Under the pieces are notes generated by a model. That model was not told the DNA's origin and searched no databases. It saw only the letters and a list, made by a program, of their open reading frames with translations. A program made the translations under genes and the position numbers. From positions 310,001 through 374,000 of the forward strand of contig NW_026931334.1 of NCBI RefSeq assembly GCF_032062105.1: a stretch of 64,000 nucleotides of DNA. Direction: 5' to 3'. The stretch is from Saccostrea cucullata (lineage: Eukaryota). Every line of letters begins with the position of its first letter. Position 1 is the stretch's first letter. Shown here piece after piece: positions 3,976 through 39,006 of this stretch.

Positions 3976-4162
3976 ATGCAATTGAAAGGCAACAGAATTT
4001 TCATGTTCGTTCTAATTTTGGTGCAATGTGCATTTATAATAACTTTTGTGATGTGTATGAAATATGATCCGGCTGCAAGACCAACAATTACAGTGGATGC
4101 CAAAGCAATGTCTGGAGGTCAACCAAGAAGCCAAAGCAACCAATTACAGAAAATTTACCCAA
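3976..4162 (+). CDS. Rh ammonium transporter, distal alternative first coding exon (1a)
   Basis: MQLKGNRIFMFVLILVQCAFIITFVMCMKYD...QLQKIYP follows the Rh TM1 pattern (Q..F...F....Y) plus the loop ending in YP. It ends CCA A|gtaagt (phase 1), which joins TG at 33639 to give YP-M-FQDVH. No other Rh body was found between here and 33639. Confidence 0.78.
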
Positions 4163-6127
4163 GTAAGTCATGATCAAATATAAACTGTTACATGTATATA
4201 ATGAAACCTGTCCCATCATCTCTTTGTCAAAATAACTGAACAACATTGTTTTCAGCATTGGGAAATAAGTTATAATATAACAATGCAGAATAAGAGTATA
4301 AGGTTTAAATTGAGCTATCAGATCATAAAAGACTAAAAAAGATAAACAAAAATAGAGTTTGTGTACTAAAAAAGCACAATGTTGAGGAAGATCAGAGAAC
4401 GAAACTCGTGTACAATGTTGTTAACTCAGTCGAGCGGTCATAACGGTACCATAACGGTCTTTGATGTTGTGAAACCTTCTACAGCCTTTCTTTTCAATAT
4501 ACGAGGTACATTGTACATGTACATCAGTGGAAATTTTTATAATCTTAATATAAAATTTTATATAACCGTGTTTGCACCACTACATGTACTTACTTAGGAT
4601 TTGACTCTATGTTTAATAAAAAGACAATCACCAAAAGATAAAATAAATTTGCGTTATCAGAATATTATTACAATGTATTTATAGACTGGTATTACATGCA
4701 CATATATTTCATCTTAATTGACAAGAGATTTGTTACTGTACCTCCTTAGATTTAATATACAAGATTATTTGATACTCCGAAGCCAATAATTATGCAGTTC
4801 AGCATGAAATGAAGTTTTAAAAGAAACAAGCAAATTAACCAAATTTTTAGAATGTTCAACTGTTGTAACAAAGTCAAAGGGTTAAATAATGAAAGATTTA
4901 AAGTTTGGTCAAGGTTAAATTTTTTCATAAGTATATCAGCCAAAAGAGTTTGTTAAAATAAATTTCCACAAAGAATACATATGTTAAATATATCAGTATA
5001 TATTCAAAATTTGTGACCAACAATGTATTTATACTCCAAGGTCAAGGTAAAAGGGTATGGTATCCAATTAAAGGCACAAAAATATATTTCAGCCCTTCGT
5101 TTAAAAGTTATGGTCAAGGTTAAAGATTTGTTTCAAAGTTGTTGGTATTCAATGAAATGTCTTGTCACAAAGAATACATATGTGGAATGTGAAACAAGCC
5201 CTTCAAAAGTTATTTAAAATATATGGTCCAAGGTCAAGGTCAAATTTGGTGGTTGAGAAAGGTCTTATCATAAGGAATACACATGTGAAATATGAAAGCT
5301 AGCTCCACTAAATCAAAAGTTATGCAGTTTTTGTTCAGCATGAAATGTAGTTTTAAAAGAAATAATTAAGTGTATATACCGATTCAGTATGGTGATACCA
5401 TAAGGTTCTGATTATAATGTTTTTTAAAACAATTAAACGTGAAAACGATATGAGAACGAGCTCTGATCAATCTCACTATATATATGCATTAACTGTGAAT
5501 TGTTAATGTGGTAAAAACTCGGACCCCTTGATACCAGAAGTTGGATTAGTTGCCTATAGAAGGATAAAGCAGCCCCTGTACACCGGTCACAATCGCCACA
5601 AGCCTCTGTATTAATCAGGTAAGGAGTTGTCTGTGTTGAAGCTTGGTATGAAAACCAATTGTTGTAAAACTTGCCAGTGGAAATAAGACCAAAGCATTAA
5701 GGCTGCATTATATTCAAAAGTCACACCTTGATAAAACCAGGATTGATGCTGGGAGTCCAGTAATGCCAACTTATTTATCAGTAGTGTGCCTTGGTTAAAA
5801 AATCGATCGTAATCACAACATGGTCTTGGAACCTTTAAGAACGTATAAACATAATTCAGAGTACATCTGTTCTGAGAAGGCTTTTTATACTCTTATATGA
5901 CTATACAATGAATTTATACATATGTACGATGAAAATTGTGTTAATCAGAAAACAGTTTACACACCAACTTGGAAATATGGAAAATTTTATTCAAAGAAAG
6001 AATAAGATACTAAGTATTTATTCACAACATCTTCATACAAAATTCAAACATTTGCTTAAAAAATGTCAATTCATGTCTGAGAGTATTAATACAGGATCAT
6101 TATCTGATTCACTATACAGCTGTAACA

Positions 6128-37600: not shown

Positions 37601-39006
37601 CATGACAGGGGGGCGTACAGCTATAGAGCAGGGGGGATACCAAATGGCTGCCCTCTGTCTGACCTTGATTATAGCTATAGTGGGCGGGGCCATTACAGGT
37701 AATGGAAATGATTGGTTTTTCAACTTTTTTAATAAAAAAAAATTGAACAAATGTTAAATTTCAAAATTCATATCTATGATGATGAGTTAAAAAAAAAAAG
37801 AGCGGGCATATTGAAGGTGTCATAAGACCCTCTGAAGACTTGTCTTAAAATATATCTTGATCACTCTACTATATACCGAGGAATCTTATTGGAACGTACC
37901 GTAAATTACAGTTAATTCCGGGTTTTTTTTTTCAAAAAACAAAATTAAAAAAAAATTAATTGGGACTTTGTATCTTTTTACATAGTCTGAATATTCATTA
38001 AACGCATACTTAGCTTGAAAACACAATTACCCGTCCCTTTATGATGCAAGCACCTAGCATCGTTTTTCAGTGCGAGAAATAATTGATGACAAACGTACCT
38101 GGAAAAATTTTGACAAAATAAAAGAAAAAGGGGGTTAAACTTCCCTAAAACGATAAACCTGGTATAGTACATGTACTTATGGGCTGTCATCGTGCTGATT
38201 TAAAGTCATCTGTGCCATGAAAACTATCCCAGCTGTGTATATTCATAACTTACAAATCGAAAACTTATTTTTGATTGAAAAACAAGTTGAACTGAAATTA
38301 ATACGGTGTTTTGCTTTTAATTTGATATTTTGACCACTGTGAGAATTATGATCCACAGGCGCTTAATTGACGTTTTTAACCTTTCTTTTCATAAATGAAA
38401 AATTCCTCATACTAATAACGTTTTTATTTTAGATGGGGAAATTATTTATGAAAAGAAATGTAAAAAACGTCAGGCGGCAGTGATCTAGACTGTTATGCAT
38501 CTTACATTAGGGAGGGCATGAAGAGTAGATCGTCATGTCCCACTTTCTAAAGTTTTAATTATAGCTAATTTTCGGATACTGAGAATTGTAGAATCACTAA
38601 ACCTTGTAAGCCTTGAAATATCTATATGTGTTCATTTTCAAATTGTATTAGATGCATATTTTAGACAATGTGAACAAAGTCCAAAAAAGTAGGTCACAGT
38701 GTTCTACTTTTAAATTTTTAACTTTTGTCTCAATATAGGTTGTTTAAAGGGTTAAAAAATATCAAGTTTTCTCACTTGGGTCTTCATAAAGTGCACCGGC
38801 ACAGGAGCTTAACAGTGCTTTTTTTTTTAAATATAACCCTCTGTTGTTCTTTTTTAGGTTTAATCCTTCGCATCCCCTTCTTAGACGGACCTAAGGCAGA
38901 AAACTTGTTTGACGACCAGAGCCAATGGAATGTCGCCGATGAGGGTTTCCCAGGGACAGGTGACGTCCCTTTGAATGGGAAACCAAATGATGACACAAAG
39001 ATGTAA
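25672..39006 (+). CDS. Rh50: Rh-type (Rh50/Amt-Mep-Rh family) ammonium/CO2 channel, 9 coding exons, 458 aa with exon 1b (470 aa with exon 1a)
   Basis: Exons 25672-25822, 33639-33813, 33914-34064, 34169-34313, 35145-35308, 37067-37204, 37290-37423, 37529-37698 and 38858-39006, all GT-AG with consistent phase. Motifs: [95 protein letters not shown]. Twin His and Phe-gate residues are present. Confidence 0.95.
27779..27934. repeat. Near-perfect 156-bp palindrome (about 75-bp arms, gaa loop), probably the end of an unclassified non-autonomous element
   Basis: taaggaatg...tataatctggtttgggtcagtttacgcttt ataatccgc-gaa-gcggattat aaagcgtaaactgacccaaaccagattata...cattcctta. The arm fragment ccaaaccagattatac recurs at about 28240. 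Confidence 0.85.
29180..30133. mobile_element. Non-autonomous DNA transposon with about 265-bp imperfect TIRs and a 12-bp TSD
   Basis: aggcctttagatcgc...actcgacattagcttgggcc (29181-29447) mirrors ggcccaagctaatgtcgagt...gcgatccaaaggcct (29870-30132). It is flanked by tggtttttatca at 29168-29179 and 30134-30145. Confidence 0.8.
35648..36085. mobile_element. Pearl/HINE-like element in Rh intron 5
   Basis: Stem-loop cgcaacaagttgcg, gtcc/gtca microsatellite, duplicated taaaccgctgcacagaat core, gtgagcttgctcac palindrome at the end. Confidence 0.6.

Follow-up and report, generated by a model that had tools for sequence, protein, structure and literature searches.

A single detected Rh channel gene in the oyster Saccostrea cucullata with two conserved first exons and five enclosed TMEM79-like genes

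Why would a gene for a membrane channel carry two different first coding exons, and why would a cluster of other genes lie between them? This question is raised by a stretch of 64,000 nucleotides from the oyster Saccostrea cucullata (RefSeq assembly GCF_032062105.1, contig NW_026931334.1, positions 310,001 to 374,000 of the forward strand), which is called the window throughout. The window contains one gene of the Rh family, with a distal first exon (1a) and a proximal first exon (1b) upstream of one channel body. Five genes of the TMEM79-like/MAPEG type (g1 to g5) are located on the opposite strand between exons 1a and 1b. The explanation we favor, and consider very probable, is that a single detected Rh gene uses two old and separately conserved first exons, likely with two promoters, to produce channels that have an identical pore and that differ in the N-terminal transmembrane helix TM0 and in the first outer loop.

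Both first exons start with ATG and end with codons for Y-P followed by A/GTAAG, in which the slash marks the splice site, and the donor phase is the same. Exon 1a is 187 nucleotides long (62 codons plus one nucleotide), whereas exon 1b comprises 151 nucleotides (50 codons plus one nucleotide). Joining either exon to the acceptor at position 33639 (TTGCAG/TGTTTCAAGAT) generates YP-M-FQDVH, and one open frame then extends over eight body exons to a stop at 39006, giving 458 amino acids with exon 1b and 470 with exon 1a. The window contains the exon-end motif TAYCCNNGTRAG at exactly two sites, which are the ends of exons 1a and 1b. When the window is shuffled, the mean number of occurrences is 0.165, and two or more are present in three of 200 shuffles. 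No piece of an Rh body is found between the two exons by tblastn (best stray match E 0.6). A hidden Markov model of exon 1 reveals no third copy in the window (next match E 0.28); this model was built with 1a and 1b included and is informative for the absence of further copies alone. A preliminary description, made from the letters of the window, had proposed two diverged Rh first exons with matching phase-1 ends and a single downstream body, and the sequence, the frame and the in-frame joins confirm both proposals.

The same description had placed the end of the gene at 39006. This stop exists, but it belongs to a read-through form, and the spliced gene has a further exon. With that terminal exon the spliced product is 461 amino acids long and identical to P0121, a protein whose source label is Saccostrea Rh. 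Two C-termini can thus be formed from window positions 39003-39630, the read-through end KM-stop (stop at 39004-39006) and the spliced end KIPML-stop. Both kinds are present among M. gigas-type proteins (short in P0131, P0133 and P0139; long in P0129 and P0130), and the long end resembles an acidic dileucine-type sorting signal. The combination of two starts and two C-termini makes up to four Rh isoforms possible.

The Rh body matches PF00909, is closer to Rh than to Amt proteins, and matches human RhAG with an E value of 1e-124. The 1a form of Magallana gigas aligns to human RhAG from residue 9 and to RhCG from residue 13, which is the TM0 region. In the AlphaFold model of this protein (P0130), residues 2-27 form a helix with a predicted local distance difference test score (pLDDT) of 96-98. 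A disordered loop follows, in which residues 45-53 fall below pLDDT 50, and a helix formed by residues 55-79 begins in exon 1 and continues in exon 2. The top fold match of the model is RhCG (TM-score 0.91 on target, 45% identity), and exons 1a and 1b each contain a hydropathy peak. Exon 1 encodes TM0, the loop and the lead-in of the next helix, but the pore-forming part of TM1 lies outside. The earlier proposal that alternative first exons exchange an N-terminal helix and the first loop is supported by the models and the conservation described below, with the correction that the helix is TM0 and not TM1.

The residues of the phenylalanine gate and the twin histidines were located by motif (F115, H170, F219 and H327 in the 1b form) and by an alignment to RhCG. 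Because all of these are encoded in shared exons, the pore should be identical in the two forms, and any difference between them should concern expression, assembly or trafficking. In RhCG, TM0 is reported to lie at the trimer interface (PMC10794816). The 1a helix carries Cys18 in five of five sequences and Cys27 in four of five, and it is without the helix Gly25 that is found in all four 1b sequences. A glycosylation switch between the two loops was also considered and rejected, since a sequon is present in only one of five 1a loops and in none of four 1b loops. The channel function of both forms, including trimer formation and the flux of NH3 or CO2, is predicted from sequence.

The same pair of first exons is present in other oysters. 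NCBI lists isoforms X1 and X2, named 'ammonium transporter Rh type A(-like)', for Crassostrea virginica (477 and 464 amino acids; XP_078326967.1 and XP_022326129.1; P0123 and P0124) and for M. gigas (483 and 470 amino acids; XP_034303634.1 and XP_011437584.3; P0130 and P0129). In both species, X1 begins with a homolog of exon 1a, X2 begins with a homolog of exon 1b, and the Rh body is common to the two. The bodies of X1 and X2 show no differences over 414 amino acids in C. virginica, whereas the M. gigas X1 body has 0 of 413 differences from P0132 and 4 of 420 from X2. These isoforms are automated predictions that carry no description. In general, alternative isoforms predicted by Gnomon at NCBI rest on aligned reads. 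A literature search covering few subscription papers found no paper describing them. The two-isoform arrangement is already in the automated annotation of two related oysters, and it is a known kind of architecture.

Exon 1a is whole and uninterrupted in at least four further sequences from oysters, and the absence or decay in relatives that the preliminary description had considered is not seen. The ATG position, the frame, the Y-P pair and the phase-1 donor are all kept, the last two in five of five 1a lineages. Residues 1-31 of 1a show 77, 77 and 87% identity among three genera (74, 71 and 74% for 1b), while the 1a loop shows 17, 17 and 37% identity at a nearly constant length. The conservation of the helix while the loop drifts suggests that the 1a helix is under selection. 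A comparison of the window with the aligned sequencing runs gives, in small numbers, two changes in codons 1-30 of exon 1a (one silent, one replacement) and seven in codons 31-62 (six replacement, one silent). In a tree of first exons, 1a and 1b each form one cross-genus clade (support 100/99 and 100/100), which indicates that both are older than the split of these oyster genera. A search with a 1a profile over 1.84 billion representative proteins returned three matches, all of the 1a type. None of ten candidates scored when exon 1a was used as a query against longer proteins, where the X1 forms are cluster members and not representatives, and a protein atlas search gave nothing at 0.9 or above. 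Among 128 Rh proteins with an N-terminus, which are a small and biased set, only the oyster pairs combine one body with two homologous first exons.

Genome searches for Rh sequences detect this locus only (one match from three candidates with exon 2 as the query, 8/8 with scallop Rh, and eight matches from seven candidates with mussel Rh). Five loci elsewhere in the genome match PF00909, and these are Amt-like and have no match to Rh. Exon 1a is single-copy in the genome search. In mussels, at least two Rh lineages exist, located on different chromosomes, and in a quick tree of Rh bodies the grouping of oysters with mussel lineage A has a support of only 82.

Transcript evidence differs for the two exons. 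The junction from 25822 to 33639, which joins exon 1b to exon 2 and which the preliminary description had named as a check, is present in four of four aligned runs as three contig sets and, in run X7, four raw reads. Contigs containing 1b extend upstream to 25612-25629. For exon 1a, one contig in run X2 covers positions 3969-4162 and ends on the donor base, as would be expected if the assembly graph forks there, and a contig in run X1 lies over part of the exon. Contig depth, which is a crude measure of isoform abundance, is 5.3 for 1a versus 440 for 1b in run X2 (∼1%) and 2.5 versus 29.5 in run X1 (8%). From the contig that ends at the donor and the X1 models of two other genera, we infer that exon 1a is joined to exon 2 in this species, and we read 1a as a real but minor Rh isoform.

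Several results weigh against this interpretation. The junction from 4162 to 33639 was not observed in alignments made separately on 1a and on exon 2, which are 29.5 kb apart. Four runs aligned on positions 3700-4300 exhibit neither joints nor loose ends, run X4 passes unspliced through the 1a donor into the intron, and run X8 has no read on exon 1a. In run X1, one contig proceeds from 1b through exon 2 to exon 3 unbroken at the point where a second upstream exon would merge. Moreover, runs X1 to X4 are only guessed to be RNA, and a search for runs that contain the sequence listed no RNA run (best share 0.19). None of 19 short 1a-type proteins continues into FQDVH (3/3, 15/59 and 1/1 cluster members). 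Rather, 14 run into the intron and five proceed from Y-P-T into a short unrelated tail. None of the three members of the Saccostrea protein cluster has 1a, and the Saccostrea records examined carry 1b alone. The same is true for the seven full-length Logan members of the M. gigas cluster among the 15 of 65 members listed, none of which has 1a. In addition, the genome searches score best candidates only and yield lower bounds, such that 'single Rh' denotes a failure to find others. Two considerations temper these points. The alignments on exon 2 include 2109 loose ends and 239 joints beyond those listed, and a loose end before 33639 may be among them. Also, joined forms would cluster with full-length Rh proteins, and the count of 0/19 is therefore partly built in. 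The five proteins with Y-P-T tails (P0351, P0355, P0337, P0340 and P0341) come from Logan contigs, and their tails suggest that the 1a donor is joined to some other stop-containing exon through another acceptor, or that the donor is altered.

Under the explanation we favor, two promoters would be used, and either first exon would be spliced onto the same channel body. The 1a form would be minor and probably restricted to certain tissues or stages. The main gain would be the second promoter, and TM0 perhaps tunes assembly or trafficking. One oyster gene would then cover functions that are divided among several Rh genes in mussels, while the TMEM79-like genes would represent a tandem cluster of greater age that came to lie in the 1a form's long first intron.

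The five enclosed reading frames agree with the preliminary description, which had reported five intact genes of the MAPEG fold on the minus strand. All have a start and a stop, encode 183-190 amino acids, and exceed the PF01124 cut-off of 23.4 bits (Table 1). The sources label their orthologs TMEM79-like, and some orthologs of g1 are 11 residues longer at the N-terminus. The nested genes share 28-49% identity with g3, and for every one of them distinct orthologs exist in other oysters; g1 joins scallop genes (support 99) and g5 joins mussel genes (91). This low mutual identity, together with the grouping with scallop and mussel genes, suggests that the cluster is older than the present arrangement. 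Five of the seven matches to the family in the genome lie between exons 1a and 1b. A further locus is present as a frameshifted copy on the same contig, beyond the gene and ∼45 kb upstream of 1a (L016:6037-6655), and as an intact, near-identical copy with matching flanks on a 17.9 kb contig (L017:4095-4682). These copies are probably two haplotypes.

A pyrimidine tract and an AG are located 10-30 nucleotides before the ATG of g2 to g5 (7895, 10376, 17261 and 19567, minus strand). Such acceptor-like sites point to untranslated first exons and to promoters further upstream, and g2 to g5 may have a first exon in common. All five proteins retain the motifs R/K-xxx-N-xx-E and GY-x6-R, which we take to function in glutathione binding. 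The only match to a solved structure is a weak one to MGST2 (E 0.98). Glutathione chemistry is a prediction for these proteins, and for TMEM79 itself glutathione binding has been proposed from distant homology (PMC3834151). A scallop genome is reported to contain seven TMEM79 copies that are high in the digestive gland (PMC13212745), and a scallop protein is counted among TMEM79 homologs (PMC7521923). Gene nesting is common in mammals, where 17% of genes in human and 12% in mouse act as hosts and where long 5′ introns are preferred (PMC11694760).

Table 1. Exons of the Rh gene and the genes enclosed by its two first exons (positions in the window)
Feature	Positions	Strand	Characteristics
Rh exon 1a, distal first coding exon	3976..4162	+	TM0 helix, 30-residue loop, YP, phase-1 donor A/GTAAGT
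g1, TMEM79-like/MAPEG, 183 amino acids, one coding exon	6128..6679	-	PF01124 37.5 bits
g2, TMEM79-like/MAPEG, 186 amino acids	7335..7895	-	PF01124 38.3 bits
g3, TMEM79-like/MAPEG, 190 amino acids	9804..10376	-	PF01124 44.7 bits
g4, TMEM79-like/MAPEG, 188 amino acids	16695..17261	-	PF01124 41.3 bits; 85% to S. echinata P0151
g5, TMEM79-like/MAPEG, 187 amino acids	19004..19567	-	PF01124 39.8 bits; 76% to O. edulis P0158
Rh exon 1b, proximal first coding exon	25672..25822	+	TM0 helix, 18-residue loop, YP, phase-1 donor A/GTAAGA
Shared Rh exon 2 (FQDVH)	33639..33813	+	PF00909; acceptor usable by 1a and 1b
Rh body exons downstream of exon 2	33914..39002	+	AG/GT ends, open frame; four junctions seen in aligned runs
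Rh terminal coding exon, end KIPML-stop	39618..39630	+	Read ends pile up at 39002 in run X7; identity to P0121

Other explanations for exon 1a must be weighed. It could begin a separate short transcript, completed by a nearby terminal exon or by reading into the intron, that yields a small one-helix peptide or nothing, with full X1 channels as rare noise. The low depth of 1a relative to 1b fits this idea, as do the Y-P-T tails of five of the 19 short proteins, which cannot arise by reading through a GT donor. However, a free peptide needs no frame into exon 2, and yet the phase-1 donor and the Y-P pair, which is relevant in the full channel only, are kept in five of five 1a lineages, and X1 models exist in two genera. 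We consider this explanation quite improbable. It is hardly credible that exon 1a is an assembly artefact or a dead remnant. In favor of an artefact are the fragmentation of the assembly (23,869 contigs) and what is probably a second-haplotype copy of a nearby locus, but the two exons have a global identity of only 24%, each has orthologs in other genera and in independent assemblies, and 1a is intact. More weight should be given to the possibility that, instead of arising by exon duplication within the gene, 1a is the leftover of a second Rh gene upstream of the cluster, whose body was lost and whose first exon is now spliced to the surviving gene. The presence of at least two Rh lineages in mussels and of one body in this genome is consistent with such a capture, and 1a has no higher identity to 1b (36% over a core of 36 columns) than to other first exons from molluscs (31-41%). 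However, the approximately unbiased test does not reject a tree that makes 1a the sister of 1b (p-AU 0.34, with 36 columns and low power), the 1a branch is long, and no remnant of a body is found near 1a. The exon-1 tree cannot root the duplication, and we view capture as possible but doubtful.

An additional claim, which is compatible with the two-promoter explanation, is that the 1a transcript is mutually exclusive with the five antisense genes owing to transcriptional interference, which would tie ammonia transport to membrane glutathione chemistry. The geometry of the locus favors this claim in that 1a transcription must pass all five genes, and each nested protein has the presumed glutathione-type motifs. 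In mouse, Tmem79 has an expression quantitative trait locus (eQTL) profile in common with Rhbg (PMC3834151), although that result is co-expression, is opposite in sign, and may merely reflect linkage. Most mammalian host/nested pairs have no expression correlation, and anticorrelation is rare (PMC11694760), so that these base rates leave interference possible but unsupported. Furthermore, the cluster predates the arrangement, and a further family locus lies outside the gene. We found nothing that shows regulation of Rh by the enclosed genes and judge interference to be unlikely. Until expression data say otherwise, we read the five genes as passengers in an Rh intron.

The proximity of Rh and TMEM79-like genes might be older than oysters. 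In favor of conserved linkage, the Rh gene and the g4 ortholog of S. echinata lie on equally long contigs with accessions 65 apart, and in one M. gigas model, genes of the g3 and g2 types are fused in the order seen in the window. In contrast, an M. gigas g3-type copy and one TMEM79-like copy each from Mytilus trossulus and the Yesso scallop are on contigs that differ from those of the Rh genes listed. No nesting of TMEM79-like genes was seen on DNA beyond this window, as metagenome scans with the TMEM79-like and exon-1a profiles returned no locus. Human RHBG is located ∼80 kb from TMEM79 on chromosome 1q. The position given for human TMEM79 is chr1:156.25-156.26 Mb, and the mouse Tmem79 eQTL profile is stated to match Rhbg and Rab25, with the data not shown there (PMC3834151). 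TMEM79, TSACC and RHBG also appear in one run of co-altered genes in a table without positions, consistent with such proximity (PMC8195639). The location of Rh beside TMEM79 in oysters and mammals may reflect old microsynteny or chance. A broader proposal would be that oysters reduced Rh to one body with two interchangeable trimer-interface modules, allowing mixed trimers from one gene, and that Rh-TMEM79 is an ancient animal linkage kept by co-regulation in ammonia-excreting epithelia. This combined proposal is speculative and probably incorrect.

Other features flank the Rh gene. A TMEM145-like gene (PF21892; ∼1880-3200, minus strand), whose ATG is near 2190 and which probably has an untranslated exon at ∼3000-3200, is positioned head to head with exon 1a less than 1 kb away, and the two may have a divergent promoter in common. 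The last exon of a GNAT acetyltransferase gene (41559-41834, minus strand; weak Pfam GNAT matches, NAA50-like in the preliminary description) is tail to tail with Rh. Farther downstream are, by eye, a LINE-like reverse-transcriptase fragment (44298-45494, minus strand) and a Ty3/Gypsy-like element (54102-58747, minus strand) with gag-, protease- and reverse transcriptase-like frames in several broken pieces. Ankyrin-repeat exons (48045-49557, minus strand) are also present, as are Ig-like exons with a short tandem peptide repeat after them (61692-63745, plus strand).

Animal Rh channels are distinguished by a single helix, TM0, whose role is not settled. A natural pair of channels that differ in TM0 and the adjoining loop alone would offer an experiment already set up for questions of trimer assembly, of targeting, and of NH3 flux compared with CO2 flux. 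In studies of oyster physiology, primers or RNA-seq counts placed on the shared body would hide two promoters of what is seemingly the only Rh gene. An ancient Rh-TMEM79 linkage, if true, would provide a clue to an orphan protein of the human skin barrier.

The closest known counterparts of this gene are the X1 and X2 isoforms of M. gigas and C. virginica, which have the same two first exons and the same body in an orthologous arrangement. The Saccostrea records differ from these in carrying 1b alone, and the nested cluster is known here from this window only. Alternative promoters or variable first exons on a constant body are found in NBCe1-A/B, KCC3a/b, erythroid and kidney AE1, UGT1A and the protocadherins. 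In contrast to these examples, the oyster gene would exchange a homologous membrane helix and outer loop, rather than a cytosolic tail or a whole domain, and it has two variants only. The isoforms of Drosophila Rh50 are a possible precedent, although no paper on them was found. With RhCG the oyster channel shares its fold, TM0, the phenylalanine gate and the twin histidines. Among vertebrate Rh proteins TM0 varies between separate genes (PMC10794816), whereas here two TM0 versions reside in one gene. Mammalian host/nested pairs likewise place opposite-strand genes inside a long 5′ intron (PMC11694760), but the oyster locus encloses five paralogs, and the nesting applies to one of the two isoforms alone. 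The enclosed genes themselves resemble TMEM79/mattrin and the MAPEG superfamily in their PF01124 scores above the cut-off, their five-helix length and the absence of introns from the coding part. Unlike mammalian TMEM79, the oyster genes are without a long low-complexity N-terminus and have expanded in tandem, and their activity is predicted by homology.

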